NCBI GenBank assembly: GCA_017631855.1
Contig: JAGBSP010000033.1
Span: 13,461-77,460, forward strand
DNA: 64,000 nucleotides
Reading direction: 5' to 3'
From: Clostridia bacterium
GTDB lineage: Bacteria; Bacillota; Clostridia; Oscillospirales; CAG-272
In this document: one piece after another, positions 1,639 through 62,255 of the stretch
Position numbering within the stretch: the first letter of the stretch is position 1
Layout: each line of letters begins with the position of its first letter
Translations under genes and position numbers: made by a program
The notes under the pieces: model-generated
Database searches by the model: none
What the model was told of the DNA's origin: nothing
The model's input: the letters and a program-made list of their open reading frames with translations, nothing else

Positions 1639-2523
1639 TTAAAGATCTTCTTTATAAAATATAAATCCCTTATGAGAATTCTTCTCGATTTCTCTATTAA
1701 TAAACTGCACCTCCTCTAAAAGTAACCGCTTTGTAACGATCGTACAATTACCATCTTCACTGATTTCAGGGAAATCAAACACCCCTGGCCTTAATGTAAG
1801 CACATCTCTAGGGGTATGATCAACTCCTCTGCTAGCAATAATTATAGCTCGATTAGGCGAAATTGGGCAAACATCATAAAGCGGTAAGCGAAGGTGATCA
1901 CCGATAAATACGAGCGGATAGCAATCACCAAGTATAAAATCACCTTCTTTAGGTTCTACAACAATAATATACTTACCTAACAATGAGTTGGTGTCACGTA
2001 GCATAAACCATTTAATAGGCGGATCAATCTCTGTATGATTTGCCACATCCTGAATTGACCGGCATTTCACCAAATACCCCAAATTGCGTTTCCAAAAATC
2101 CTCAAGATCTTCATTTCTTTGAAAGTACTTGTAAAAACCTTTGAATTCTTTTGATGCTTTATCGCTAAATTGCTCTTTTGCATTTATATTCCTAAAAGAC
2201 ATAATAGCAAAAAACAATTTAATAGCGCTATCTTCTTCCTCTGTAAGCTCAATTTTGCGCTTATCAAGAAACTTTACTTTGATTAATTCAGCAACTTCCC
2301 TCTCATATACGGATAAATCATATTCTATTTGAACGGGCACATCCGCGTAATTTATTTCATCACGATAAAGATTTCGCTCCATGAACACTTCGCGTATTTC
2401 ACATTTTGAAATAGCTTGGGATTCCTTATCGTAATAACAAGCTACCTTTCTATCACTGTCGCAGGCAAAATTACGCAAAATAAACTGCGGTATGTAATGA
2501 TGCCGTATAGGTTCTTTTCGCAT
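1639..2523 (-). CDS. DUF4238 family protein
   Basis: The N-terminus, HHYIPQFILRNFA, matches the H-Y-(I/V)-P-Q-F-Y-L-R-x-F signature I associate with DUF4238. 294 aa, AT-rich. Confidence 0.82.
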   Translation of the reverse strand: MRKEPIRHHYIPQFILRNFACDSDRKVACYYDKESQAISKCEIREVFMERNLYRDEINYADVPVQIEYDLSVYEREVAELIKVKFLDKRKIELTEEEDSAIKLFFAIMSFRNINAKEQFSDKASKEFKGFYKYFQRNEDLEDFWKRNLGYLVKCRSIQDVANHTEIDPPIKWFMLRDTNSLLGKYIIVVEPKEGDFILGDCYPLVFIGDHLRLPLYDVCPISPNRAIIIASRGVDHTPRDVLTLRPGVFDFPEISEDGNCTIVTKRLLLEEVQFINREIEKNSHKGFIFYKEDL

Positions 2524-2549
2524 AATTCTCCCTCCTTAATGATTTTAAG

Positions 2550-3053
2550 TTATCTTCCGTACTTTTCAAATATTTTATCAGCTCGATCTCTCGTGAAAAG
2601 CCACTCTTCCGGGATTTTATCCGTCGTTCCATATGCCTGCGCGGTTGGACCCCACGTATGCTCCATATGCAAAACAGTATCACCGCAACCACCTCTTGCC
2701 TTTCGCAAGACTTCAGCTATTTCACTTGGAGTAGCCAAATACATCTTCGGCAGTTGCAAATCATTCACATTTTCAAACTGCACAAGACAAAATATGGTCT
2801 TTTTGTGGTGCTTGTTCAGCCATTCGTCAATCGCCTCGTGATAAGTACGTCCCTTCTTAAAGCTTTGGGTTAATCCCCAACCACCGTCTTTGCTACCTTT
2901 AACTGATATTTTGAGCATCTCATCCCCACGGCTTGCTATCAAATCATACTCGGGTTGATCTGCGCCATACTGCACAGAAACATCATATCCATATCGTGCA
3001 AATTGAGCTGCCGCCATTCCTTCGGCTGCAACACCTACATGCCAAGAATTCAT
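2550..3053 (-). CDS. hypothetical protein with PD-(D/E)xK nuclease-like core
   Basis: 167 aa. GVAAEGMAAAQFARYGYDVS ... EYDLIASRGDEMLKISVKGS fits the G-x-x-A-E ... D-(L/I)-I ... (K/Q)-(I/V)-x-V-K layout of small restriction-endonuclease-fold proteins. Confidence 0.6.
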   Translation of the reverse strand: MNSWHVGVAAEGMAAAQFARYGYDVSVQYGADQPEYDLIASRGDEMLKISVKGSKDGGWGLTQSFKKGRTYHEAIDEWLNKHHKKTIFCLVQFENVNDLQLPKMYLATPSEIAEVLRKARGGCGDTVLHMEHTWGPTAQAYGTTDKIPEEWLFTRDRADKIFEKYGR

Positions 3054-3066
3054 TATCGCACCTTCC

Positions 3067-3465
3067 TTATTTCACAATCTCATATTCCCAATCGATGATA
3101 CCGCCGAACTCCTTGACGTTGGTATATCCGAGCTTGACAAGCTCCTCGGCTGCAATTTTGCTTCTTCTACCGCTACGGCAATAAACAAGTATTAACTGAT
3201 TTTTGTCTGGGAGCTCCTTCTCGGCGCGTTCGGCAATTTCATATTCGGGGATCAGTATTGCGCTGGGGATATGCCCCTCATCGTATTCGGACTGCGTTCT
3301 CGCATCAATGATGATATATCCGCTCTCGCTATCCATCAACGCCTTCGCTTCCGCACCGCTGAACTGATCATAGGATGCAGAACCTCCATCCGAGCATCCA
3401 ACGCATCCCAACGGCAACGCGAGGGTGAGAAGCATGAGCAAAAATCGTTTATTTCTTTTCAACAT
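3067..3465 (-). CDS. rhodanese-like domain lipoprotein
   Basis: Lipobox signal LALPLGCVGC. Rhodanese signatures IIIDARTQSEYDEGHIPSAILIP and active-site loop VYCRSGRRS. Confidence 0.88.
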   Translation of the reverse strand: MLKRNKRFLLMLLTLALPLGCVGCSDGGSASYDQFSGAEAKALMDSESGYIIIDARTQSEYDEGHIPSAILIPEYEIAERAEKELPDKNQLILVYCRSGRRSKIAAEELVKLGYTNVKEFGGIIDWEYEIVK

Positions 3466-3854: not shown

Positions 3855-5384
3855 TTAGATATTGTTCTGTTCTCCCATAAACTTAATTGACATTAATTTC
3901 TCGTACAATTCTGGATTGTTTATGACAATAATTTTCAGCTCATTAACAGCTCTAGTAAGTATTTGATATAGCATTCCTTTTAGACTGTAATAATTCTTTC
4001 TTGCTACCAATCTATTATTGTCTGCATATCTAAAATTAGAGTCCATTGCAAAAACAACCCTATCAAATTCTTGGCCTATTACACCATGTGCTTTTTGTTC
4101 ACAAAGACATGATAGTGAGTCAACCGGTTCCGAAGAATACTGCGATGGTGTAAATGTTATAGCCTTCCACTCACCTGAACAATCCAGATAGTTCAGATAA
4201 TCTTGAGCATCGCTAACATTACTAAAATACTCTATCGTTATACCTTCATAATCCATATTATCTTTACTACTGCCAAATTCCATCATATTGTGAATAAAAG
4301 AAGCCAACTTTTTATTGGTTCTAATCTTAGTAGTTAATTTGCGTATTTTTGATGTGTTTTGAGGATAAAGTGCCATTAAGTACTCATGGATATCTTTTTT
4401 CTCATTATCCTTAAAATATTGTTTAGTATCATATGAAAATATTGTGGCAATTTTTTGATCGTACATATATTGAACAAAAGAATCCAGCTGATGCTTTCGA
4501 ATGCGATGAGCTTCATCCACCACAATCAAATCAGGTTTTTTTATTACAGGATTAAGGTCTTTGGCCTCGAGCACACTTACACATTTAATCTTCCACCTAT
4601 AATTCTTGTTTAACTCCCATTGTCCTTCATTTAATGTAGCGCAATGCAACACCAACACGGATTTTTTGCACTCTTGATACGTTTTCGCAATGTCATATGT
4701 AAGCAATGTCTTGCCGGTACCTGCATCGGCAGATATACAAAAAAACAAATACTCACCGTTATCTATCGAGGTCAATATCTCCTTCTTTTTCTTTGCTTGA
4801 TCTGGCGTTAGGAAATACTCACCGGACATAAAACGGTCCACCTTGTTAAAAGGAGAAACGAGATAGTTTGAAGGTTTGAAAAGCTTGTCTGGATCTAACT
4901 CAAAATCCACATTTTGATTAGCTAGCGCATCAACTAAATGTTGAGGTTCAACATTCTCAACACAATTATTTTCAGCATCATAACAATAAAACCCATCGTC
5001 CTCAATATACGTATATATTTTTAAAGGCTTTTCCAGAAATTTTAGATAATAATGCTGTTTATGCATTTGAGTAATGATGGTTTCAATTTTGCTTTCTTCA
5101 GGCAGCTTGCCTTTTAGCTCAATATTCACAATATAGTCTGTTCCGAATCGAAGCAAATCAAACTCGTTGGCTATTTGAGGTATTGAAAATCCGACATAGT
5201 ATCCATCAAGAATTCGAAATGGAGCCGGCATATCCGCAGACAACAACTCGCACAGTTTCCTCAAAGACACAACTTCATTCTTTTTCAAAAGCAACTTTGA
5301 TTTGTCTATCTTTATTTTCCCTTCATAATGCGCTGCATGAGTTTGACAAACAGAAGGTAAATACTGCGGTTTCATATGCCTCAC
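3855..5384 (-). CDS. NERD/PD-(D/E)xK-like N-domain fused to SF1 (DUF2075/UvrD-C-like) P-loop helicase-like ATPase
   Basis: N-terminal FDLLRFGTDYIVNIELKG gives a D...E-x-K core. Walker A is CISADAGTGKTLL and Walker B is LIVVDEAHRI. The SF1 C-terminal signatures are HGVIGQEFDRVVF and LYQILTRAVNEL. The track start at 5384 is GTG. ATG at 5375 behind GGGGTGAGG is an alternative start. Confidence 0.85.
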   Translation of the reverse strand: MRHMKPQYLPSVCQTHAAHYEGKIKIDKSKLLLKKNEVVSLRKLCELLSADMPAPFRILDGYYVGFSIPQIANEFDLLRFGTDYIVNIELKGKLPEESKIETIITQMHKQHYYLKFLEKPLKIYTYIEDDGFYCYDAENNCVENVEPQHLVDALANQNVDFELDPDKLFKPSNYLVSPFNKVDRFMSGEYFLTPDQAKKKKEILTSIDNGEYLFFCISADAGTGKTLLTYDIAKTYQECKKSVLVLHCATLNEGQWELNKNYRWKIKCVSVLEAKDLNPVIKKPDLIVVDEAHRIRKHQLDSFVQYMYDQKIATIFSYDTKQYFKDNEKKDIHEYLMALYPQNTSKIRKLTTKIRTNKKLASFIHNMMEFGSSKDNMDYEGITIEYFSNVSDAQDYLNYLDCSGEWKAITFTPSQYSSEPVDSLSCLCEQKAHGVIGQEFDRVVFAMDSNFRYADNNRLVARKNYYSLKGMLYQILTRAVNELKIIVINNPELYEKLMSIKFMGEQNNI

Positions 5385-5401
5385 CCCATTTCATGATAAT
5401 T

Positions 5402-7207
5402 TTATTTCACCGCCTTGATATATTCCCTTAAATACTTGTATGGGAATGGGATAACCGTTAGTTGCCCATTCTTAACAAACGAAACGCTCATAAGTGGTAA
5501 CAATTGTTCAAAGAAGTCGGGAGCATCCTTATATTTGACAATTCGTCGAATATTGGTTGAATGACTAATGCTATTACGCATTCCCTCTCCTATCTCACCT
5601 ACAAAGTAGTATGTATCTCCCCCTTGTTCAAAACACTTGATGTCCAAACACGAAGTCAAGAGTTCATCTCGTTTGCTTCTACCACGTAGTTTATTGTTTC
5701 CTTCCAAAAGTTCTGCATCTATTGCAAAGAGTTCCGGTAGCGTTATCCAATCAGTTCCCTTTATAATATTGATTTTACCGTCGGAATTTTTCAAAATACC
5801 TTGAACATCTTCAGATTTTGCCTTAGCATTCTCAAAAATCTCCACACACTCATGGTACTGATCCATATTGAAAAAGTCCAACTTGGATTCTGTAAAAGTA
5901 AAGCTACCATCGGACTTGATATTCATAAAGAAATACCTATTTACGCCATTATCGCACTTTGTGCATCCAAAGCAAAAATCCTCTTGATAGCCAAGTGCAT
6001 TCCAATCGAACAATGTTATTTGACCACTTAAAATATCTTTTTTGATAAGTAGTTCATGAACGATTGTAGAGATTGCAAACTCGCACTTTCCGGAAAAATC
6101 TTCAAATGTTATATGCTGAACAGCCGCATCTTCATGCTTCTCTTTATAGGGATCTTCTATATCCTCATAGTATGCTGCATTGTGAATAACACATATATTC
6201 AAAGATCCTTTGGAAACGCGCTTTCCAACTGTGGCTTTTACGCCATATTTTTCAAGAAGCTTTTCTGCTACATCACGACAAAATCTATCCGAATATTCGT
6301 CACCTATCTGATCAACTATTTTAATATTTTGTGCCGAAAGCATCTCTTGGATTGCTTTCAAATTTTCTTTTTGAGCTCTCCTCGAATAATCAAGTGCGGT
6401 ATATTCTTTAATTGTGTCAAATTCAATTGATGCAAGTCCTGCGAATTCCATATTAAAGTTTGACACAACGGATGCAAGCATACCTACTTTGCTTTTACGA
6501 TATTTTCTTATGTCCTGAAGATCAACAAACGGAATATCTGTTTTCTTACCATCAAGCTGACGCATGATAAAGGCAGGCTCATCATCTTCTTTCAGCTTTC
6601 TTCTTAGTGTACTCTTTCGAGAAAATACATACTTGGGATACTCCTCGAATTTTCTGGCACCAAACGTTATTTTCTTTCTGAGCAGCTCAGATGTGAAGGT
6701 ATGCATAGACATACAAAGCTTCATGTCTTGAGTAATACGCAACTCTAAACACGGAACTTGCCAAATGATATTTTTCTCCGATTTTTTATCATGTCGCAAC
6801 CATTCGTTATGGAAACAATAAAAGTGTCCGGTAAGATTGTTGCATTTCAAAAACTCGGATTTTGGGCTGCTCATGCTATTCAACAAAAGCTGAAGGACTT
6901 CACTTTCTTTGAGCAACGATGCGTCCTCTTTTGAGAACGTAATTTTTTCTCCTTCCTCGTGTGAATCAAAGGTTCGCTTCAATGCATCAAAATTACCATC
7001 ATTACGATTCATTAAAACAAGAAAAGTTCTTCCTCTTTCAAACAGAACTGCGCGAACTGAATCGTTCAAGAATGGTGCATCAATTATATATGCTCCATTT
7101 TTGAAATATTTATCGTCAGTTTTTACACGAAATACATCATACTTTTCGTTGAAAGCCGATATGTCTACCTTAAAAATAACTTGATTCGTTCTAATCGGCG
7201 AATTCAT
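5402..7207 (-). CDS. hypothetical protein (601 aa), no recognisable domain
   Basis: Long AT-rich ORF with ATG at 7205-7207 behind AGAGGTG. It overlaps the upstream helicase gene by 17 nt and sits 17 nt before the downstream ATPase gene. The only notable motif is a CFGCTKC cysteine cluster. Confidence 0.8.
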   Translation of the reverse strand: MNSPIRTNQVIFKVDISAFNEKYDVFRVKTDDKYFKNGAYIIDAPFLNDSVRAVLFERGRTFLVLMNRNDGNFDALKRTFDSHEEGEKITFSKEDASLLKESEVLQLLLNSMSSPKSEFLKCNNLTGHFYCFHNEWLRHDKKSEKNIIWQVPCLELRITQDMKLCMSMHTFTSELLRKKITFGARKFEEYPKYVFSRKSTLRRKLKEDDEPAFIMRQLDGKKTDIPFVDLQDIRKYRKSKVGMLASVVSNFNMEFAGLASIEFDTIKEYTALDYSRRAQKENLKAIQEMLSAQNIKIVDQIGDEYSDRFCRDVAEKLLEKYGVKATVGKRVSKGSLNICVIHNAAYYEDIEDPYKEKHEDAAVQHITFEDFSGKCEFAISTIVHELLIKKDILSGQITLFDWNALGYQEDFCFGCTKCDNGVNRYFFMNIKSDGSFTFTESKLDFFNMDQYHECVEIFENAKAKSEDVQGILKNSDGKINIIKGTDWITLPELFAIDAELLEGNNKLRGRSKRDELLTSCLDIKCFEQGGDTYYFVGEIGEGMRNSISHSTNIRRIVKYKDAPDFFEQLLPLMSVSFVKNGQLTVIPFPYKYLREYIKAVK

Positions 7208-10200
7208 TTATACACCTCTTTATCATATCAAATGCTTTATGGATGGGTTGGTTAGGATTGTTCGAATCGATCAACGAAGGAATTTGCACAACGGTTATAT
7301 CTCCATAACTCGTCCTAATCGGCTCGGCAAATTGCTCAGACACTACGTTAATTACGATGATACATTTTGCATTACAAGTATCTGCTTTCGACTTGATTTT
7401 CTTGAGCATTTCCTCAGTACCAAATCGCGTTCTCTCGTGCCAATTCTTAAAGTCAATGAAAATATCAGTGTTTTCAATCTTATAATCGAACATCTCAAAC
7501 ACTTCGGAATCTTCGATTTCTGTCAATTTCAGTCTTAAATAGCTCCAAAGCAAAAATCTTCCGGCCATCTCTCCCAACGCACCCTTGTAAATGTTGTTAA
7601 ACAGCGGTGGAGAAAGAATAAAATCATTATAATCGAATGTAGTTGCCCATCCCTTACATTCAAAGAAGTTTCGGAGACTTTGATTTTTCATCAAAAGATC
7701 CAGCTTGGCTGTAGACGATGAAACTTCGTACGGGTACTCTTTTGTTTTTCCGAAACTAACAAGAACTTTATTGTAATCCGACTCCTGATTATAATAAATT
7801 GTGTTCATTGGTTTCGGTAATTTTACATACGTATTATGTGCCATAAAGCTACAGCTTTCTTCCAACGATGACAGTGTTGGATGCTGCAACGTGTACTCTC
7901 TAAGCATCTTCCACTGCGCCATACGAGACTCCGTCCAATCTTCTCGCAAAACGTTATTGATCATCTTGTTTACGCGAACAGACAATAACGATGCCTCATC
8001 AGCAAAATCTCCACCAGCATAAGCTTTTCTATGTTTTTCAATATGAGCAAGCAAAGCCCTAAACTCGGGATTCAAAAGTCTGTTTCCGTCATCGATGTCA
8101 AAATCAATGCTTTCGGAAATACGATAGTCCGCAAAAACATAAACTGTTTTTCTCTTTTGATTTGTTCTACAAATACGACCAATTGCCTGAATTATAGTAC
8201 GAGTAGACATTAAAACCACACTTTTAGTATCGTAAACCGATTTTGAGTCATCCCAATAAGGATGTCCCGTCAAAAATGTCTTAAATGCCTTTTTGACATG
8301 TTTTTTTGTTTCTTGTGGTGAAAGTTCAGCCCACTCTTGCAAAAATTCTACATAATAAAGATACTTTACGAAGTCCTCATCTGAAAGATTTTCACTTAAA
8401 TTCACAAAGATATTCGTAGGCTTGTCCAGATAGATCGCGTCAAAATCTTTTTCCCCTCTCGATTCTCGATCATTGCTACTTACCAATTGACCAATTAAAT
8501 TTTGAGGAATGCCATATTGCAAGTTTTGTCCTGCACCTATTGTTTGATATACAGAAATAACAAACAACTTTTCACCATGCTGCAACCTATCAATGATTAG
8601 CTCTTTGTTAATGTCAAATTCTTCGCCATCTAACAAGCAGACAGTATTTTTGTCAAATTTCTGACCTCTTTCTTTATGGATAAACTTGAATATTTCATAT
8701 AGCATATCCATATCAAGATACATATCGCCCGGACGAGGATGTTTGGTTAACACACACAGAAAAGACTGAATGTCGTCATGGCGCACAAATTGCTTATATG
8801 CCATAGCAATTCTAAAATATCTCTCTTTATTGTAATTATTCTTTTCTTGGCTCAGTGCCCTCTCTACTTTATCAAAAATATGTTGTGCAAGCTCAGTGTC
8901 GTTGAAAACGCCTTCCCATATTTTTTCGTGATAGACTTCTCCCAAAAGTTGAACATCAATCTCAACATCCTTATATCCGGAAATCGATCTTTCAAATTCA
9001 GTTCTGAGTCTACTCCTATCGGATTCTCTCACAACATTATATTTTGTCTGCATCTTTGCTCGCAGATACTTATAATCGAAGTTTCCAACAACAGTAGGAA
9101 CAGATGCTGTGGCAGATATTCCTATTACCTTAGCTTTTTCGCAAAATCTCAAAAGGATTTTTTCAGGTGTCACCTGAAAAGAATACATCATGATTTTTGA
9201 TTGCATATCATGCGCGTAATCATCTTCAAATGCATAATAACGGAATCCGTTTTCATAAAATGACAAATCAAAGTCCGCATTCTCTATATCGCCCTTCGGC
9301 TTGTGCGAAGAAATAAGAATTTGTGAAGTTATGTAGTCAATATGCTTGTCACTTAAACGGAATTCAGCCAAAATCGAACGGATTGCTGATTCCAACGAAA
9401 ACTCATCTTCTCCCGGTTTTCTTCGTTCTTCTCTGCACTGCATATAGTTATATGCAAGCATATTTATGCCGCCCGAAAAATATTTTATAAAACCTCTTAG
9501 TTTACCAAGCATCACTTGGATATTCCCATCCTCACTACTCGGCTTCTCGGAAGAAAACTGTATAGCATTTATTCTCTCAGTCGAGTCGCTGACAGTTGTG
9601 ATATAGGACTTATTTCCGTCCAAAATTGCATGGAACTGATGGTCTTGGAACAAAAAATTCCGTGATTCAGCATCTTCGTTGCTTACCGTCTTATGACTGA
9701 ATTGCAACGAATACTGACTATGAATAGCATCAGCCTTTTCTCGTATGTTGTCAACGATAAACTGAAGGTTTGAGTGTTTATAATTGTTTGCAGCCTGACG
9801 CTCTGTCCATTTTTTAGACGGTGCGGTCATTGCTTTCGGAAACTCGATAGTATGCAAGACGGAATAGATATCGTTAAACAGTTCTATATAATCGATTTTT
9901 TCTCTAAGTCCGTTGGAAATAATATTTCTCAGTATAGTTTCCTTGGTGGCATCAAACTCATCAATAAAAATGATCGCATTGTCGATTATTTTTGAGTTAT
10001 AAAACATATACGACGGTTCTACAATTGTAGCATTTCTCGCAAGGAATTTATCCATACTCATAAATATGATTTGCTTATCACTCGTAAATACAGCCGGATA
10101 CAACTCACCCAGCCACTGCCACTTTTCATCTGTCTTTATCGCATAAATTCGGTCTTTTACAGTTTTAAATTCGCGCGCCAAAATCGCCTGCACATATCGC

Positions 10201-10667
10201 CTAAATGCAGGTTCAGATCTTCCCATCAAATTTTCTTTGATGCTCGCAGCATAAGGTCTCAAGCTTTTTCCACCCGCGTTCTTTTGAGATTCTCTTAGGA
10301 AGCGAACATCGTTTCTCATTGCTTTGAATTCATCCGTTTTTCGAATTTCAACGGGAATTCTTTTTTCAAGTTCTTCTGTCAGATATTGAATTACACAATC
10401 GGCGTTTGAATCTATGAAAAGAAACTTTTCCTTAAACTCAGCTAAATGGCCGCCTTCTCTAAAGTGCTTCTCTAAATCTTCTTTAGGAAGATTCTTTTTC
10501 AAGGTGGTTACAAAGAAGAATTTGCGCTCAGCATTGGCTTCTTCCATAGATGCCTCGTATATGTATTTCAATACATTATAGGTTTTGCCAAAACCCGTAG
10601 GCATATCAAGCAACAAAAGCCCATTTTCAATTCCGTTAGAACAATAGTCCTTTATAGCTGTGTACAT
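7191..10667 (-). CDS. SF2 (DEAD/DEAH, type III restriction Res-like) helicase with C-terminal PD-(D/E)xK nuclease-like domain
   Basis: Helicase motifs: I DMPTGFGKTYN, II IFIDEFDATKE, III GISATAS, V-like YQTIGAGQNLQ, VI QAIGRICRTNQ. The C-terminus, GALGEMAG ... FEMFDYKIEN ... IFIDFKNW, looks like a D...D-x-K nuclease core. AGGAG precedes the ATG at 10665-10667. Confidence 0.88.
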   Translation of the reverse strand: MYTAIKDYCSNGIENGLLLLDMPTGFGKTYNVLKYIYEASMEEANAERKFFFVTTLKKNLPKEDLEKHFREGGHLAEFKEKFLFIDSNADCVIQYLTEELEKRIPVEIRKTDEFKAMRNDVRFLRESQKNAGGKSLRPYAASIKENLMGRSEPAFRRYVQAILAREFKTVKDRIYAIKTDEKWQWLGELYPAVFTSDKQIIFMSMDKFLARNATIVEPSYMFYNSKIIDNAIIFIDEFDATKETILRNIISNGLREKIDYIELFNDIYSVLHTIEFPKAMTAPSKKWTERQAANNYKHSNLQFIVDNIREKADAIHSQYSLQFSHKTVSNEDAESRNFLFQDHQFHAILDGNKSYITTVSDSTERINAIQFSSEKPSSEDGNIQVMLGKLRGFIKYFSGGINMLAYNYMQCREERRKPGEDEFSLESAIRSILAEFRLSDKHIDYITSQILISSHKPKGDIENADFDLSFYENGFRYYAFEDDYAHDMQSKIMMYSFQVTPEKILLRFCEKAKVIGISATASVPTVVGNFDYKYLRAKMQTKYNVVRESDRSRLRTEFERSISGYKDVEIDVQLLGEVYHEKIWEGVFNDTELAQHIFDKVERALSQEKNNYNKERYFRIAMAYKQFVRHDDIQSFLCVLTKHPRPGDMYLDMDMLYEIFKFIHKERGQKFDKNTVCLLDGEEFDINKELIIDRLQHGEKLFVISVYQTIGAGQNLQYGIPQNLIGQLVSSNDRESRGEKDFDAIYLDKPTNIFVNLSENLSDEDFVKYLYYVEFLQEWAELSPQETKKHVKKAFKTFLTGHPYWDDSKSVYDTKSVVLMSTRTIIQAIGRICRTNQKRKTVYVFADYRISESIDFDIDDGNRLLNPEFRALLAHIEKHRKAYAGGDFADEASLLSVRVNKMINNVLREDWTESRMAQWKMLREYTLQHPTLSSLEESCSFMAHNTYVKLPKPMNTIYYNQESDYNKVLVSFGKTKEYPYEVSSSTAKLDLLMKNQSLRNFFECKGWATTFDYNDFILSPPLFNNIYKGALGEMAGRFLLWSYLRLKLTEIEDSEVFEMFDYKIENTDIFIDFKNWHERTRFGTEEMLKKIKSKADTCNAKCIIVINVVSEQFAEPIRTSYGDITVVQIPSLIDSNNPNQPIHKAFDMIKRCINEFAD

Positions 10668-10685: not shown

Positions 10686-11075
10686 TTAGAATCGTCTTGT
10701 GATTTCCTTTAATATTTCTTCGTCTGCTGGGCAGAACTCGTAGTTCGATATCTCGCTCGGCGTAATCCATTTGATATCGTTATGCTCCAACTTCTGTGGC
10801 TCGCCCTCGGTAATGGTCGCGGTAAAGAGCGTCAGATGCACCATCAAGTCGGGATATTCGTGGATAACATCCATAAACTCATCACCGACAGAAAGAAGAA
10901 CATTTAATTCTTCCTTGCACTCTCTAACGAGCGCCTGCTCTTTCGTCTCTCCCTGCTCAACCTTGCCGCCAACGAATTCCCATAGGAGTCCTCGCGCCTT
11001 GTGCGCCGGGCGCTGGCAGATCATAAATTTATCGCCCTGCCAAACGAGAGCAGCTACTACCTCAGTTATTTTCAT
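10686..11075 (-). CDS. Nudix hydrolase, MutT-like
   Basis: Nudix box GGKVEQGETKEQALVRECKEELNV. 129 aa. The start ATG overlaps the upstream stop (ATGA at 11072-11075). Confidence 0.9.
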   Translation of the reverse strand: MKITEVVAALVWQGDKFMICQRPAHKARGLLWEFVGGKVEQGETKEQALVRECKEELNVLLSVGDEFMDVIHEYPDLMVHLTLFTATITEGEPQKLEHNDIKWITPSEISNYEFCPADEEILKEITRRF

Positions 11076-13201
11076 ATTTCCTCAATCCCCAAACTCTTCA
11101 AGTACTGATATGTACCGTCATAAAATTCGGGCAAGCGGGTGCTATCTTCCCAAAATCCGCTAACTGTTTTATTCGGATTACCTTCAGGCACACAAATCAC
11201 CATTCCAGCTCTTGCGCGAGTAAGTAGAACACGATACGCATTCAGCATATATTTCATAAGCTCTTGTTTGCTTTCGGTGCTCCCTATTTGCTCAATCCAC
11301 TTGGTCTGTCCATTGAAACGATAGAAGCGCCACTTGCCGTCCTCATATCGCATATCGGCATCCCAAAGGAGACACGTATAGTCAAGTTCCAAGCCCTGAA
11401 CCTGAATTTCTGTAGCTGCATCCTCAAGATAATTTGACGATCTTACATCGGCTTTATCGTCAAGGAACCAGTGAACCGCATTTTCATCACCTGCTGGCAA
11501 TATATGTATGGCTAACGGCTTAAACCTCGCAGATTCTTTCGTTACCAAAACTCCGGTACGCTCAGTTCCTCTGACCTTATCGTGTAGCCATTTTCTCGCC
11601 TTTGCCATATCTCGAGTTAAAACAATCGGATACTTATCTTTGATTTCACTATACAGTGTCGATGCATTATCATCAAAAGACAAAAGCGAATGAACAAACG
11701 CCGAAAGTTTCTCTGCTCTGAACGAACGTAATGAAACACCCAAATGCAAGCTTTCAGCATAAGTTACATTGTGGTTATCTTTCAACAACTCATTAACTTT
11801 ACCCTCGGCATACTCTGCATCTGTCAATTTGGGAGAGATGTAAACGTTCCAATGTGGGAACTGTTCGTTTAGCGCCTTGATCCATTCGGATATTCCAGCC
11901 TCACCGGTGTTGATCTCCTGACCGCCGCCAACAAGGCAAACTATCGTTGCCCAGTCCTCGCGCTGATCAAGCGACCAAATCAAAAATGCCGCTTCTGATA
12001 ACGGGAAATTTGGAACTTTCAGTTTGTTACCATACGTTCCGCCTCGTTTCAAGTAATCAGCAAGTCTTTTGTGGGTCCAAGAGCGCTGTGCTTCATCAAA
12101 AATTGCTACGTGCTCAACCTCACCAAATCCGGCTTTTTCTAATTTTACAGCCTTTTCGGGATCGATTTCAAGAACGCCGTTCTCGACAGGGTTCTTTATT
12201 TTTGCCAACATGTTATCGCGATATCGGTGAATCATTTGAATTGACTTCGACACCTCACGACGAGAGTCGGTCATTTTCTTCTTTTCACCATTCGCTCTAC
12301 ACTTGCTGTAATTGTCCTGTGCAAGTGCTTCAGTCAATACCGCAACGAGAGGTCCATTACCCGATAGATAAACAGCACCCTCGTCCTTGACCGGCTCTTT
12401 ATTGCCCTGATATGTTTGCTTAATTGCAACATCAAGACCGACAAGCGTTTTGCCAGCTCCAGGAACACCGGTAACAAAACAAATGCTCTTTTTCTGATTT
12501 TGTTTGCTGTCTTTTATAACGTCTAAAATATAAGCGATGGTTCTATCTGTAGAAACCTTGTCCGCTTCATGTCGGGTAATGTTTTCAACAGAGTGATTTT
12601 CGTATAAGGTTTTAGCTGCCTCAATAATTGTCGGCGTTGGAGCGTATGGACTAATAATCCAGTTGTCATCGACAGGTGTTTCATTCGGAAACTCTTTGAG
12701 CACCTCAGCAATTAAATTCGCAACACCCGATTTTCCCGACATCAGCGGGTTAACCACTCTGTCATCATAAACAGACATTTGGATTTCAGTAGATACGTTA
12801 TGATAATTTGTTGCAATAAGGATCGGTACTATAAGATTATTCTGACTAAACTTATGAAAGTTTTTCAAGTCGAGCGCATAATCAAGTACCTGATCGACAT
12901 CTGCTTCTATTATTCTGGACTCTCCGACCTTAAACTCGAGGCAAAACACGATTCCCTTAAGAAGCAATACAACGTCAATTCGCTTACCAAGACGAGGAAT
13001 ATCGTATTCAAAGATGATTTTGCCGTCCTTGTTTGAAAACTCGGACAAAATCTCTTTCATAATCGAGATTTCCAATTTCCATGCCTCTCTTGTTGTAGTG
13101 AGAGCTTCCCCATGATATCTCTCGCACAAAGCACCAAATATTGAGTTTTCGCTTGTGGTAATAAATTCTGTAAAACTGCTATTATATAAACAACGGCTCA
13201 T
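11072..13201 (-). CDS. DUF2075-type protein: PD-(D/E)xK-like N-domain + SF1/Schlafen-group-3-like P-loop ATPase
   Basis: N-terminal IPRLGKRIDVVLLLKGIVFCLEFKVGE gives D...E-x-K. Walker A is FVTGVPGAGKTLVG and Walker B is VAIFDEAQRSW. The C-terminal LLTRARAGMVI matches the SF1 signature. AGGAG sits 8 nt before the ATG at 13201. Confidence 0.88.
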   Translation of the reverse strand: MSRCLYNSSFTEFITTSENSIFGALCERYHGEALTTTREAWKLEISIMKEILSEFSNKDGKIIFEYDIPRLGKRIDVVLLLKGIVFCLEFKVGESRIIEADVDQVLDYALDLKNFHKFSQNNLIVPILIATNYHNVSTEIQMSVYDDRVVNPLMSGKSGVANLIAEVLKEFPNETPVDDNWIISPYAPTPTIIEAAKTLYENHSVENITRHEADKVSTDRTIAYILDVIKDSKQNQKKSICFVTGVPGAGKTLVGLDVAIKQTYQGNKEPVKDEGAVYLSGNGPLVAVLTEALAQDNYSKCRANGEKKKMTDSRREVSKSIQMIHRYRDNMLAKIKNPVENGVLEIDPEKAVKLEKAGFGEVEHVAIFDEAQRSWTHKRLADYLKRGGTYGNKLKVPNFPLSEAAFLIWSLDQREDWATIVCLVGGGQEINTGEAGISEWIKALNEQFPHWNVYISPKLTDAEYAEGKVNELLKDNHNVTYAESLHLGVSLRSFRAEKLSAFVHSLLSFDDNASTLYSEIKDKYPIVLTRDMAKARKWLHDKVRGTERTGVLVTKESARFKPLAIHILPAGDENAVHWFLDDKADVRSSNYLEDAATEIQVQGLELDYTCLLWDADMRYEDGKWRFYRFNGQTKWIEQIGSTESKQELMKYMLNAYRVLLTRARAGMVICVPEGNPNKTVSGFWEDSTRLPEFYDGTYQYLKSLGIEEI

Positions 13202-13428: not shown

Positions 13429-13660
13429 TTTACACCTCAAATAATTAAAGTATTATATATTTAATTATACCACTATTTTCACCACAAATCAACAATATTC
13501 TCAAATATTATTCGCGAAGTTGAAATTTATTTCATGTTTGCCAGCTGGCGTAAACATCGTTATGACCTTTTTTGCATGGTAGAGATCGTTTTACGTCAAT
13601 AATCTTTTCACATGATAAAATTTATTAAGCCTTCGGGCAATAAATTTTAAGGAGAAAAAC

Positions 13661-14836
13661 ATGGCAAACGTTATGCAAAAACCAAACGGAACCTATCTTG
13701 TGCGAATCTCTTGTGGAAGAGATATTATGACAGGTAAGCAAATTCTACGCGGACGCATCTTCAAACCGTCAAACCCCGATTTAAGTCAAGAAAGACTCCA
13801 GAAAGAGCTTAATGAATTTATCGAAGAGTTCACAGACGAACTACAATGCGAACGCAATAGAAAAAAGCCGGAGAACAAAACTGTTTCCGACTTTGCGAAG
13901 GAGTATCTTTCTATTCAAAAAACGTCCCTCTCGCCTGGCTCCTATAACTTTTATCAAAACATCATTGAAAAACATATTCTTCCTATGTTCGGGCGAATGC
14001 GCCTACGTGACATCAAAACCTATCACGTACAGGATTTTATTTTGCGCCTCAATTCTCTTTCCAGGAGCGACGGCAAACCCGGCCATATATCTCCATCTAC
14101 TGTCAAGCGCTATACAAGTGTTCTGCGCTCTATGCTAACAATGGCATATAAGTTATACTATATTGACGATGACATAGGCCTATCACGCCGTTTAACATTT
14201 CCTAAGGAGCGTTATCAAGAGGTTGACGTGTTCACCATAGAAGAAACAAAAGCAATCCTCACTGCCGCTAAAACAGAGCCAATTAATATACGCTTGCTGA
14301 TCGAACTTGCTCTTTTCACCGGCATGCGCCGTGGTGAGATCGTTGGACTTAAATGGTCTGATATCAATTTTGACAAGCAATGTCTGTCCATCAAGAGAAG
14401 CATTTATAAACCCAAAGGCGAGAAATCTATTGAGAAAGAACCGAAATCACATTCGAGCATTCGTACTATCGCTATTCCGAACTGTCTATGTGAAACACTC
14501 GCGGAGTACAAGGTCTGCCAAGAGCGGCATTCCCTGTCACTTGATACTTGGCAAAATCTCGATTACGTATTTACTGACGAGAACGGCAACGTAATGAATC
14601 CACAAACCCCCACAAAGCAATTCTCACATTTTCTTGCAAGACACAATATCCGACATCTGAAATTTCATTGTTTGAGACATACCTCTGCTACTCTTCTACT
14701 TTCCAACGGTTGCGACATCAAAACGGTTTCCGCGCGTCTCGGACATTCAAGCATAGATACTACAAATATCTACGTACACGTGCTTGAGAGTGTTGATAGA
14801 CAAGCTGCCACTACATTTGAAAATCTATGCAATTAA
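13661..14836 (+). CDS. int: tyrosine recombinase / phage-type integrase
   Basis: C-terminal catalytic region GMRRGEIVGLKW ... HCLRHTSATLLLSNGCDIKTVSARLGHSSIDTTNIYVHV supplies the R...H-x-x-R...H...Y residues. AAGGAG precedes the ATG at 13661. Confidence 0.95.
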   Translation: MANVMQKPNGTYLVRISCGRDIMTGKQILRGRIFKPSNPDLSQERLQKELNEFIEEFTDELQCERNRKKPENKTVSDFAKEYLSIQKTSLSPGSYNFYQNIIEKHILPMFGRMRLRDIKTYHVQDFILRLNSLSRSDGKPGHISPSTVKRYTSVLRSMLTMAYKLYYIDDDIGLSRRLTFPKERYQEVDVFTIEETKAILTAAKTEPINIRLLIELALFTGMRRGEIVGLKWSDINFDKQCLSIKRSIYKPKGEKSIEKEPKSHSSIRTIAIPNCLCETLAEYKVCQERHSLSLDTWQNLDYVFTDENGNVMNPQTPTKQFSHFLARHNIRHLKFHCLRHTSATLLLSNGCDIKTVSARLGHSSIDTTNIYVHVLESVDRQAATTFENLCN

Positions 14837-14899: not shown

Positions 14900-15952
14900 T
14901 TATTTGACTATTTGATTATATCTTCCCATAACCAAATCAATAATAACCTGTGATTTCACTTTCATATTCAGTTTTGCAATCACATCTCGTACCATCTCTT
15001 CGGTAACTTCGGGAATATATGACTTGTAATTCGGATACTCTTCCATAAGCGCATTAAACAATGAAATCAACATATCTTTGGCATCCGGCTTTGATGGATA
15101 TCCACGAGAAATCAATGCCATATTATTGTCAAAATTAGGAGCCAATCCTAATAGTTCACCGGTTTTAACATCACGCAATAATCCAAAATTATTTGTATGT
15201 CTGTCAGGGTTAGCACAGATTGTATCCAAAAAAATCATTCTAACATAATCTGGTATAGCTCGAGGACAAAGATTATTAAGTGCCTTTATTACATCAGAAT
15301 ATTCTTCATTGTCTCCCATAAAAGACGAAGCAGGCTCAAAATTCACAGAAGCTGCATTGGTAAAATCCAATGACATAATAAAATCAAAGCCTTGTTTATA
15401 TATAGCCATGTTAAAACCAAATTTTTTTCCCAATTCATATACAAACAATTCAGAAAACATTTCATCATTTGTTGCTCTTTTGTACATCCACCATTGGCCT
15501 TCTTTGAGTCGCCAACATTTTTCAAAACTTCCCAAATTAGTCAACTCAGGAGTGATAATTTTTTCGGATAAATTACGTTGAGCTGCTTCATTAAAACTGT
15601 TATAGCTTCCTTTTAATGCAAGCCATGAAAAATAGTTCTCATCAAATTTCACATCCGAATATGACAATTGTGATCCAATTGGACGAACCCAATAATTATC
15701 GGTTATTGTGGCTCCATTAACATGAATTACAGTTGAAACATCATCACGTTCTACCAATCGCAATGCTTTTTTTAACAATCTTGAATTAGAACGATGACTA
15801 TCTATAGCACGCGTTTCGAGCCAAAGATCCGCATTCTGAATTTTTTTCAAATACATAGGCAGCAAAGAATCATTAACGACAGTCAGCTTATTATCATTCC
15901 ATATAGCAACAAGCGTATCTCCACTGAATATCTCGTAATTTCTATCAGCCAT
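14900..15952 (-). CDS. hipA: HipA-like serine/threonine kinase toxin (HipA_C-type)
   Basis: C-terminal kinase core ICANPDRHTNNFGLLRD ... LGLAPNFDNNMAL matches D-R-H-x-x-N and the following aP-x-(Y/F)-D of HipA_C. Its start overlaps the XRE stop (TAATG). Confidence 0.8.
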   Translation of the reverse strand: MADRNYEIFSGDTLVAIWNDNKLTVVNDSLLPMYLKKIQNADLWLETRAIDSHRSNSRLLKKALRLVERDDVSTVIHVNGATITDNYWVRPIGSQLSYSDVKFDENYFSWLALKGSYNSFNEAAQRNLSEKIITPELTNLGSFEKCWRLKEGQWWMYKRATNDEMFSELFVYELGKKFGFNMAIYKQGFDFIMSLDFTNAASVNFEPASSFMGDNEEYSDVIKALNNLCPRAIPDYVRMIFLDTICANPDRHTNNFGLLRDVKTGELLGLAPNFDNNMALISRGYPSKPDAKDMLISLFNALMEEYPNYKSYIPEVTEEMVRDVIAKLNMKVKSQVIIDLVMGRYNQIVK

Positions 15953-33883: not shown

Positions 33884-34638
33884 TCTGCTGCGTCCTCCTT
33901 CGCGGATCTGTCCTTGTATACGCCGATGGGATAGTAAGGAAGCATATCGCTCTCGATCCACTCCAGCGCCTGCTTAGGCGTCATACCCCAGTTGGTCGGG
34001 CAAGCCGAAACAACCTCAACCAGCGAGAAGCCCTTGCCCTCGATCTGATTTTGGAACGCCTTCTTAATTGCCTTCTTTGCGTTTCTTACGTTCTTTACGT
34101 TATTGACGGCAACACGCGTGATGTACTCAGGTCCCTCAAGGGTTGCAAGCATCTCGCTGACACGGATCGGCCAACCGCAGTGGTTGACGTCACGTCCGTA
34201 GGGAGAGGTCTGCGTTACCTGACCGGGAAGGCTCGTAGGAGCCATCTGTCCGCCCGTCATACCGTAAATCGCGTTATTGACGAAAATGACGGTAATATTC
34301 TCGTTTCTTGCAGCAGCATGAACCGTTTCTGCCATACCGATCGACGCAAGGTCTCCATCACCCTGATAGGTGAAAACGATATTGTCGGGACGGCAACGCT
34401 TGATACCCGTTGCAACAGCGGGAGCTCTTCCGTGTGCCGCTTCAATCATATCGCAAGCGAAATAATCATATGCCATAACTGCGCATCCAACAGGAGCTAC
34501 GCCGATGGCCTTTCCTTCGATGCCAAGCTCATCCATCGTCTCGGCAACCAAACGGTGAATAATACCGTGAGGGCATCCGGGACAGTAATGAAAGGGTGCA
34601 TCGGTCAATGCTTTCGGTTTTTCAAATACGATCGCCAT
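33880..34638 (-). CDS. 2-oxoacid:ferredoxin oxidoreductase, beta (TPP-binding) subunit
   Basis: [21 protein letters not shown] (TPP G-D-G motif) and [11 protein letters not shown]. Confidence 0.9.
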
Positions 34639-41714: not shown

Positions 41715-41990
41715 AAAATAAGAAAGACACTGACGTAAATTTTACCCCGTATTCGAATGCAACACAGAGGCGGCGTTTGGTGCGAGCCGATGCAAACGTT
41801 TTGGGTGTACTCATTCCCGAGTCGGTCTTGTCAACGCGAAAGCAAGTAATGAGACACGGTAGCCCCCGTTACAGGGCAAGGCCTTTCTTTGGGCTTTTGA
41901 GTGATTTCCCTTCTTGGGGGGTAATCAGGGTGGTACCACGAATATGATTCGTCCCTGAAGCCGTACGAGCGGCTCGGGGATTTTTTTATT
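41715..41990 (+). promoter_or_regulatory. T-box riboswitch leader (inferred specifier CUC, Leu)
   Basis: CAGAGG ... TTTGGTGCGAGCC in Stem I, a T-box core GGGTGGTACCACG (41928-41940), and a terminator at 41952-41980 plus T7 (41981-41987). The CUC-A at 41810-41812 aligns with the AUC-A of the divergent leader. AAAGGAG and the ATG at 42010 follow. Confidence 0.85.
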
Positions 41991-62074: not shown

Positions 62075-62255
62075 TTGTAAATAAAATGAAAAAGTCACCG
62101 ACAAAATCGGTGGCTCTGAAAATAAGAAATTGGCAGTCATACGCAAAATAGCGTCGTTTCCGCCTCTGTCCTCTTGCCTGAGAGATTCGGTCAGCTTACG
62201 CCGGCCTTGCACCTTCGGCACCCACTTAAGGGATTCTCCAGAGCTCCTCGGTAAA
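62075..62255 (-). promoter_or_regulatory. glycine riboswitch (single aptamer) with terminator
   Basis: The minus strand reads CTCTGGAGAATCCC ... GGGTGCCGAAGGTGCAAG ... ATCTCTCAGGCAAGAGGACAGAGG, matching the GGAGA / ACCGAAGGxGCAA / CUCAGGCAAxAGGAC consensus. Hairpin CACCGA/TCGGTG (62096-62112) is followed by a T-rich tract. Confidence 0.8.

Follow-up and report, generated by a model that had tools for sequence, protein, structure and literature searches.

The DdmDE systems published so far are distributed among the Vibrionaceae and Lactobacillaceae (Huang et al., bioRxiv 10.1101/2024.10.09.617351), and complexes of the helicase-nuclease DdmD with the Argonaute DdmE have been solved for V. cholerae (Vc) and L. 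casei (Lc). The two structures agree in that a DdmE domain termed INS touches HD2 of DdmD and supplies a large part of the surface to which DdmD binds. In the 715-aa LcDdmE, INS comprises 107 aa (residues 510-616) inserted in the PIWI domain and makes contact with HD2 of DdmD as well as with the DNA duplex (Huang et al., bioRxiv 10.1101/2024.10.09.617351). In the 677-aa VcDdmE it is likewise inserted in PIWI, and its deletion abolishes the activity of V. cholerae DdmDE (Loeff et al., bioRxiv 10.1101/2024.05.10.593530). A different defence, the S. epidermidis protein Nhi, is a sufficient single-enzyme anti-phage defence that acts alone in staphylococci (Bari et al., bioRxiv 10.1101/776245). Here we analysed a 64,000-nt stretch of DNA from a Clostridia bacterium (contig JAGBSP010000033.1), hereafter the window, and in particular three of its minus-strand genes, numbered 1 to 3 in transcription order, which a first-pass annotation had proposed as an unclassified three-part defence system. 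We found that the three genes match named systems and comprise two known defences next to each other: genes 1 and 2 are a DdmDE pair, compact and divergent, and gene 3, which follows, is an Nhi/AbiO that probably stands alone. What is new here is the clade of DdmE proteins without INS, how widely it occurs among anaerobes of gut and rumen, and the failure of the PADLOC DdmE model to detect it.

On sequence homology, gene 1 encodes a full-length DdmD homologue. In a search of PDB sequences, its residues 5-1135 were collinear with residues 10-1158 of LcDdmD (9ix4_A) at E=3.4e-67, and residues 288-1139 only were matched by VcDdmD at E=3e-38. The PADLOC DdmD model matched at E=2.5e-37. The fold class given by homology is a DinG/XPD-type superfamily 2 (SF2) helicase with a C-terminal PD-(D/E)xK nuclease, as the first-pass annotation had read it, and every motif that it quoted for genes 1 to 3 is present. 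The helicase motifs of gene 1 (PTGFGKT 23-29, DEFD 236-239, SAT 518-520 and QAIGRICR 827-834) include the ATPase residues K28 of Walker A, D236/E237 of motif II and R831; the motif of R831 aligns to QALGR of LcDdmD, in which R853 contacts ADP. An insert of ~280 aa between motifs II and III is the counterpart of the Arch domain (Lc 280-503). The nuclease motifs are FEMFD (1057-1061) and IDFKNW (1071-1076). In VcDdmD, mutation of the nuclease residues E1059, E1082, D1085, D1100 and K1102 abolishes plasmid elimination (Loeff et al., bioRxiv 10.1101/2024.05.10.593530), and these align to E1033, E1058, D1061, D1072 and K1074 of gene 1. All nine residues (K28, D236, E237, R831, E1033, E1058, D1061, D1072 and K1074) are invariant in 27 of 27 gene 1 homologues from related loci. 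Pfam and NCBIfam gave no informative match for gene 1 or gene 2, the sole result being a sub-threshold ResIII P-loop.

Gene 2, in which the first-pass annotation could place nothing, encodes a DdmE-type, catalytically inactive long-C prokaryotic Argonaute (pAgo) as judged by profile searches and a predicted structure. Searched against the PDB as a single sequence, it matched LcDdmE at E=3.5e-20 and VcDdmE at E=5e-4; with a 12-sequence profile, the match to LcDdmE reached E=1.9e-32 in three collinear stretches and that to VcDdmE 4e-10. An AlphaFold2 (AF2) model built with 36 homologues had a predicted local distance difference test score (pLDDT) of 87 and a predicted template modelling score (pTM) of 0.83. 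When this model was compared with the PDB by Foldseek, the best six matches were all DdmE chains (E 8e-35 to 4e-20, template modelling score (TM) 0.61-0.75), with LcDdmE at E=8e-35 and TM 0.75 and VcDdmE at TM 0.72-0.73, and the next were MpAgo, hAgo2 and TtAgo. The predicted fold is that of a long-C pAgo with N, L1, a short PAZ analogue, L2, MID and PIWI.

The functional residues are consistent with this assignment. The guide 5'-phosphate and Mg2+ are bound in VcDdmE by Y363, Q376, E401, K405, K674 and E678 (Loeff et al., bioRxiv 10.1101/2024.05.10.593530), which correspond to Y354, Q364, E385, K389, K591 and E595 of gene 2, the last five being invariant across the family. No invariant D, E or H was found within the PIWI residues 400-590 of gene 2 in the 36 homologues, and gene 2 therefore has no predicted DEDX slicer site, as in DdmE. 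The only feature singled out before in this protein was the cluster CFGCTKC (residues 412-418); it was ruled out as a metal site, the cysteines not being conserved among homologues.

PADLOC returned nothing for gene 2 even at E<=10, its DdmE model PDLC04131 included. The same model detects the INS-containing relatives P0219 (2e-7) and P0259 (9e-9), and gene 2 looked like an orphan because the model detects such relatives but not gene 2 itself. PADLOC-DB 2.0.0 moreover requires matches to the hidden Markov models (HMMs) of both DdmD and DdmE, and at this locus only DdmD is matched. The named-system matches of PADLOC were thus confined to gene 1 (DdmD) and gene 3 (AbiO/Nhi). The remaining matches for the three genes were marginal ones of the P-loop type (type IV DinG, Cas3c and DpdE, E 1e-3 to 1e-4), and no component of Hachiman, Gabija, DISARM, Druantia, Mokosh, Zorya or type I/III restriction-modification was matched by any of them, in agreement with the first-pass annotation. 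Gene 2 had two matches only in the plasmid collection, NZ_CP117770.1 (Nostoc) and NZ_CP072985.1 (Lactobacillus intestinalis). Both are distant (27-32% identity), lie on megaplasmids and are annotated as hypothetical protein. The phage collection yielded zero matches. There is therefore no evidence from these collections that the gene 2 clade itself is plasmid- or phage-borne.

Gene 2 is without the INS domain in PIWI. In the profile alignment, residues 460-530 of gene 2 (70 aa) lie opposite residues 474-634 of LcDdmE (160 aa), and ~17 residues are left at 496-512. A search of 1.84 billion representatives returned 1045 relatives of gene 2 as cluster representatives at 50% identity, 405 of them at E<=1e-30. 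Among the best 150 of the 1045, 125 were near full length, and in these we counted the residues inserted at profile positions 485-530. Fewer than 20 were present in gene 2 and in 97 of the 125 relatives, and 53-83 residues in 26 of the 125. INS has been called conserved in long-C pAgos (Loeff et al., bioRxiv 10.1101/2024.05.10.593530). We treat it as a lineage-specific elaboration and not as a family-defining feature of DdmE, because its fold differs between Lc and Vc and because the claim of conservation was drawn from orthologues with an identity to VcDdmE of 60% or more. Its absence is the reason why we file the pair of genes 1 and 2 as a DdmDE variant and not as a typical member.

The partner protein also differs at the corresponding surface. 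D584/R585 of LcDdmD, which contact INS, align to G576/E577 of gene 1 (window ~8937-8942) and are followed by a 12-aa deletion. This is suggestive only, and may be a change that co-varies with INS loss in the partner DdmE. We consider it somewhat more likely than not that the INS-less DdmE clade recruits DdmD via an interface unlike that in both solved complexes.

The pairing of the two genes was followed across genomes. A scan of species-representative genomes with the gene 2 profile gave 37 loci, and further loci came from metagenome look-ups. The hosts of the 37 loci are Clostridia (Lachnospiraceae, Oscillospiraceae, Ruminococcus), Erysipelotrichaceae, one Fibrobacter metagenome-assembled genome (MAG) and Bacteroidia. 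Forty-one loci have both a full-length ddmE and sequence upstream of it, and in all 41 ddmD lies directly upstream of ddmE in the same orientation, with an overlap of 10-71 nt (mostly 17). Since a large clade found in nature does without INS and yet keeps strictly to its pairing with DdmD, a different or simpler recruitment interface is implied.

Gene 3 is assigned by sequence to AbiO/Nhi, an already-named single-protein defence. The first-pass annotation had excluded a mapping onto Nhi, and this did not hold: both PADLOC models match at ~1e-145, AbiO at 2.4e-145 (residues 9-500 against profile 9-466 of 468) and Nhi at 1.3e-144 (residues 5-500 against profile 2-468 of 470). The architecture is an N-terminal PD-(D/E)xK nuclease joined to a DUF2075-type superfamily 1B (SF1B) helicase. 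The earlier reading as nuclease plus SF1 helicase therefore stands, and only the label "NERD-like" is without Pfam support, NERD (PF08378) being absent among the matches at E<=0.01. Pfam instead gave SLFN-g3_helicase (formerly DUF2075) at 3.6e-10, and also AAA_30. Against PDB sequences there was no match at E<=1. Numbered from the GTG start, the motifs are FDLLRF (75-80), NIELKG (87-92), ADAGTGKT (219-226), VVDEAHR (288-294) and LYQILTRAVNEL (472-483), with the catalytic residues D76, E89 and K91, the Walker A K225, DE at 290-291 and R478. In 30 homologues, D73, E86 and K88 (ATG numbering) are invariant and the Walker A G-T-G-K-T, D287/E288 and R475 are conserved. The AF2 model (pLDDT 88.8) had RecD, SLFN11/14, Dna2, RecD2, Upf1 and Dda as its top Foldseek matches; Dda, Upf1 and Dna2 are the homologues reported for Nhi (Bari et al., bioRxiv 10.1101/776245). 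Of the two candidate starts, ATG 5375 is the likelier over GTG 5384, because position 2 of the PADLOC Nhi profile aligns at residue 5.

The three genes had been expected to travel together. Only the ddmD-ddmE linkage turned out to be universal, and nhi is linked to it in one shallow sub-lineage and also occurs solo. It lies directly downstream of ddmE in 11 of 11 loci whose DdmE is at least 80.5% identical to that of the window, in neither of the two loci at 75-77% identity, and in none of the 28 loci at 54% identity or below, 22 of which extend 1.5 kb or more beyond ddmE. A role of nhi as a conserved third subunit was rejected on this synteny (0 of 30 loci below 80.5% DdmE identity). At one of the two intermediate loci (L053, 75%-identical DdmE), a hairpin CCTCCCC...GGGGAGG with a T-run follows right after the ddmE stop (3087-3130 of that locus), and the operon seems to end there after two genes.

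At the distant loci, the gene after ddmE encodes PDC-M36A, PDC-M22A, BrxC, an HNH protein, GGDEF, FtsX or an unknown protein. Examples are PDC-M36A, which overlaps the ddmE end by 17 nt (L009, 11787-13268), PDC-M22A (L010, 12315-13343) and BrxC/DUF6079 (L016, 12589-16305). The position that follows ddmE is a site at which defence genes vary. In two Lachnospiraceae MAGs (L011, 2639-4885; L013, 11834-14092), proteins of 748 and 752 aa without a Pfam or PADLOC match are encoded directly after ddmE. They may represent an uncharacterised defence gene.

Several observations weigh against reading the trio as a DdmDE pair and a separate Nhi. Within the sub-lineage of the window, nhi is always linked to ddmDE, and the gap between ddmE and nhi is only 17-26 nt, without a terminator. 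The block running from the 3' part of the Nudix gene through ddmD and ddmE to nhi is uniformly 74-83% identical in DNA to that of L043, while the flanks differ (CoiA, SbcCD), and it was therefore inherited as a unit within the sub-lineage. INS is moreover essential in V. cholerae, so that the recruitment step is not transferable by analogy from the solved complexes, and what is assumed of activity, of guide type and of the target class, plasmid or phage, is taken over from homologues of only ~15-20% DdmE identity.

The fixed position of nhi (11 of 11 sub-lineage loci), the short terminator-free gap and the uniform divergence of a block found in at least two flanking contexts (TipAS/deformylase vs CoiA/SbcCD) would also suit a true three-component, Argonaute-centred system in this sub-lineage. 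Nhi would then make the short 5'-phosphorylated single-stranded DNA (ssDNA) guides for DdmE, whose source the literature leaves unresolved, or finish DNA that DdmD has nicked or opened. We regard such a system as unlikely. DdmDE of the INS-less type occurs without Nhi in 30 loci, and close Nhi relatives, at 83%, 72%, 69%, 65% and 63% identity, occur without DdmDE in varied contexts (L042, L045-L050). These solo relatives fit autonomous action, and Nhi suffices alone in staphylococci. The two parts have also diverged to different degrees: in L001, DdmE is 95% identical but Nhi only 79%, below the solo Nhi of L042 (83%), which is thus nearer to the Nhi of the window. Finally, the DNA identity of nhi to L001, L003 and L041 is 86-90% over the first ~600 nt and then 60-81% in the helicase-coding part. 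This mosaic, with a break near window position 4700, suggests intragenic recombination and points to independent recombination of nhi. A break at the ddmE/nhi boundary was not found. The simplest reading is that ddmDE is a self-contained pair and that nhi either already lay beside it or arrived by a single capture, with a transcript now common to both.

The open reading frame (ORF) coordinates given in the first-pass annotation, the 17-nt overlap of genes 1 and 2, the 17-nt gap between genes 2 and 3 (26 nt from ATG 5375) and the three Shine-Dalgarno sites (aaggag-N5-ATG at 10667, agaggtg-N5-ATG at 7207 and ggggtgagg-N3-ATG at 5375) were all confirmed on the sequence. The three ORFs are not due to chance, since each protein has hundreds to thousands of full-length homologues. 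Positions of these and the other features are collected in Table 1.

Table 1. Features of the window (positions counted from its first nucleotide)
Feature	Position	Strand	Product or sequence	Assignment or match
Gene 1	7191-10667	minus	1158 aa, ATG start	ddmD-like
Gene 2	5402-7207	minus	601 aa, ATG start	ddmE-like
Gene 3	3855-5384	minus	509 aa from GTG 5384; 506 aa from ATG 5375	nhi/abiO-type
Nudix (MutT-like) hydrolase	10686-11075	minus	129 aa	Pfam NUDIX_4 1e-22; PADLOC PDC-S07 2.4e-45
DUF2075/Schlafen-group-3 helicase	11072-13201	minus	709 aa	Pfam SLFN-g3_helicase 2.2e-65; PADLOC PDC-S41 2.4e-246
Promoter-like site	13464-13492	minus	TTGATT-17-TATAAT with TG	best sigma-70-like match, by consensus scan only
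Tyrosine integrase	13661-14836	plus		Pfam Phage_integrase 1.8e-33; SAM-like N-terminal domain
HipA-like gene	14900-15952			
DUF4238 protein	1639-2523	minus	294 aa	DUF4238 5.5e-30

Genes 1 to 3 are the last three of a co-directional array of five. The first gene encodes the DUF2075 helicase, which has a PD-(D/E)xK-like N-terminus, and the second the Nudix hydrolase; the successive gaps from DUF2075 through Nudix, ddmD and ddmE to nhi are a 4-nt overlap, 18 nt, a 17-nt overlap and 17-26 nt. In the promoter/terminator scan, no terminator-like site was found in the short intergenic gaps of the array. The five genes from 13201 to 3855 probably share one transcript, because the gaps do not exceed 26 nt and no terminator-like site lies inside them. 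A possible promoter of the array is the best promoter-like match, located 263 nt upstream of the DUF2075 gene; across the region, the promoter and terminator match counts of the consensus scan were at chance level.

We are confident that this array consists of separate, already-named modules that are probably co-transcribed, in the order DUF2075 (PDC-S41), Nudix (PDC-S07), DdmD-DdmE and Nhi/AbiO. The tight gaps and overlaps, the lack of an internal terminator above chance and the recurrence of the Nudix gene both beside ddmDE and beside nhi could be taken to mean that all five genes form one composite system with the Nudix protein as shared regulator or nucleotide-pool effector. This is very improbable, since Nudix and DUF2075 are both absent from most ddmDE loci, McrBC takes the place of the DUF2075 helicase in L038-L040, and PADLOC treats PDC-S07 and PDC-S41 as separate candidates. 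The histories differ as well, the DUF2075 protein of L014 being 88% identical to that of the window and its DdmD only 50%.

The Nudix gene seems instead to be a companion that recurs beside defence genes of the nuclease-helicase kind. It adjoins ddmD in L001, L003, L014, L024 and L038-L044, and the DUF2075-Nudix pair stands upstream of ddmDE also in L014, L024, L041 and L001, the helicase gene of the last being split into two ORFs. The Nudix gene adjoins nhi without ddmDE in L045 (1986-3782) and L047-L049 (L047 6604-8521; L048 3073-4990). In L047-L049, the Nudix-Nhi-TipAS-deformylase backbone is the same as in the window, with nothing between Nudix and Nhi, and the Nudix-Nhi junction resembles the Nudix-ddmD junction of the window. 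It appears that ddmDE was inserted into, or lost from, this backbone.

The surroundings fit a defence island. As noted in the first-pass annotation, the genes lie in a low-G+C stretch linked to an integrase, with the HipA-like gene following the integrase and the DUF4238 gene on the other side of the trio. The tyrosine integrase is taken as context, a marker of a mobile element or defence island. The low G+C was borne out at 35-37% across 4-10 kb of the window; the value of 63% cited for the backbone was not, the rest of the window being at ~50% and positions 34201-34260 unrepresentative. No tRNA attachment site was found within the window. DinG/XPD-like and Dna2/RecD-like folds are common to repair enzymes, and genes 1 to 3 might on that ground be assigned to housekeeping DNA repair or recombination. 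We give this hardly any credence: the genes are patchy across phyla, lie in a low-G+C integrase-linked stretch among defence genes and are directly homologous to experimentally validated defence proteins.

Three further features were observed elsewhere in the window. The DUF4238 gene adjoins, on the same minus strand (1639-3053), a gene for a 167-aa protein with a weak PD-(D/E)xK (PDDEXK_5/YraN-like) N-terminus, and PADLOC had no match for either protein. The backbone of ~50% G+C holds a T-box leader (41721-41959, plus strand, 101.9 bits) and a glycine riboswitch aptamer (62156-62251, minus strand, 57.7 bits).

By analogy with V. cholerae and L. casei, DdmE would load short 5'-phosphorylated ssDNA guides and bind complementary DNA of an invading plasmid. 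It would then recruit the autoinhibited DdmD dimer onto the displaced strand, and DdmD would translocate 5'-3' and nick or degrade the DNA, so that the plasmid is lost. Given the absence of INS, recruitment would proceed via another surface, probably on the C-APAZ/L1 side. Nhi, as in S. epidermidis, would sense and degrade phage replication intermediates independently of DdmDE. Its capture downstream of ddmE in one recent sub-lineage would mean a shared transcript and a separate mechanism.

DdmDE may be under-counted in the Clostridia and Bacteroidia of gut and rumen microbiomes, because the PADLOC DdmE model fails on the compact form. In anaerobes of poor genetic tractability, such systems probably act as barriers to the transfer of plasmids. 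The compact pair of Argonaute and helicase-nuclease also offers a smaller option for structural work or engineering.

Of the known systems with a solved structure, the L. casei DdmDE (PDB 9IX4, 9IW3, 9IXM; Huang et al., bioRxiv 10.1101/2024.10.09.617351) is nearest to the products of both gene 1 and gene 2. LcDdmD and gene 1 have the same domain order (HD1 with insertion and Arch, HD2, PD-(D/E)xK nuclease), and so do LcDdmE and gene 2 (N, L1, short PAZ, L2, MID, PIWI), neither of which has the DEDX tetrad. Y339 and K395 of the guide 5'-end pocket of LcDdmE are Y354 and K389 of gene 2. The two Argonautes differ in size, 715 aa with the 107-aa INS in L. casei and 601 aa with ~17 residues in its place here, at 19-20% identity. 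The V. cholerae DdmDE (PDB 8U0U, 8U3K, 9EZY and others; Loeff et al., bioRxiv 10.1101/2024.05.10.593530) is likewise a two-gene system of helicase-nuclease and inactive long-C pAgo. VcDdmD shares the five nuclease residues and the Walker A lysine with gene 1, and the six pocket residues of VcDdmE have counterparts in gene 2. It is more distant than the L. casei system; VcDdmE needs INS, whereas gene 2 is without it, and the hosts are Vibrionaceae there and anaerobic Clostridia and Bacteroidia here.

Nhi of S. epidermidis (SERP2475; Bari et al., bioRxiv 10.1101/776245) and lactococcal AbiO have the architecture of gene 3 and also sit among defence genes. SERP2475, at 606 aa, carries a poorly conserved C-terminal domain resembling glyoxalase/bleomycin-resistance proteins, which gene 3 (506-509 aa) does not have, and gene 3 differs from both in being embedded in an operon-like array directly after ddmE. 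The PADLOC candidate systems PDC-S41 and PDC-S07 match the two genes upstream of ddmD, outside the trio of genes 1 to 3. With the long-A and long-B Argonautes (TtAgo, MpAgo), gene 2 has the fold in common (Foldseek E 1e-8 to 1e-6 for MpAgo, hAgo2 and TtAgo), at a TM of only 0.34-0.44. Unlike them, gene 2 has no catalytic tetrad and a short PAZ analogue, and its partner is a DinG-like helicase-nuclease and not a long-B-associated nuclease. Finally, the type I CRISPR Cascade-Cas3 system follows a similar logic, in which a guide-bearing sensor recruits a helicase-nuclease, as noted by Huang et al. (bioRxiv 10.1101/2024.10.09.617351).

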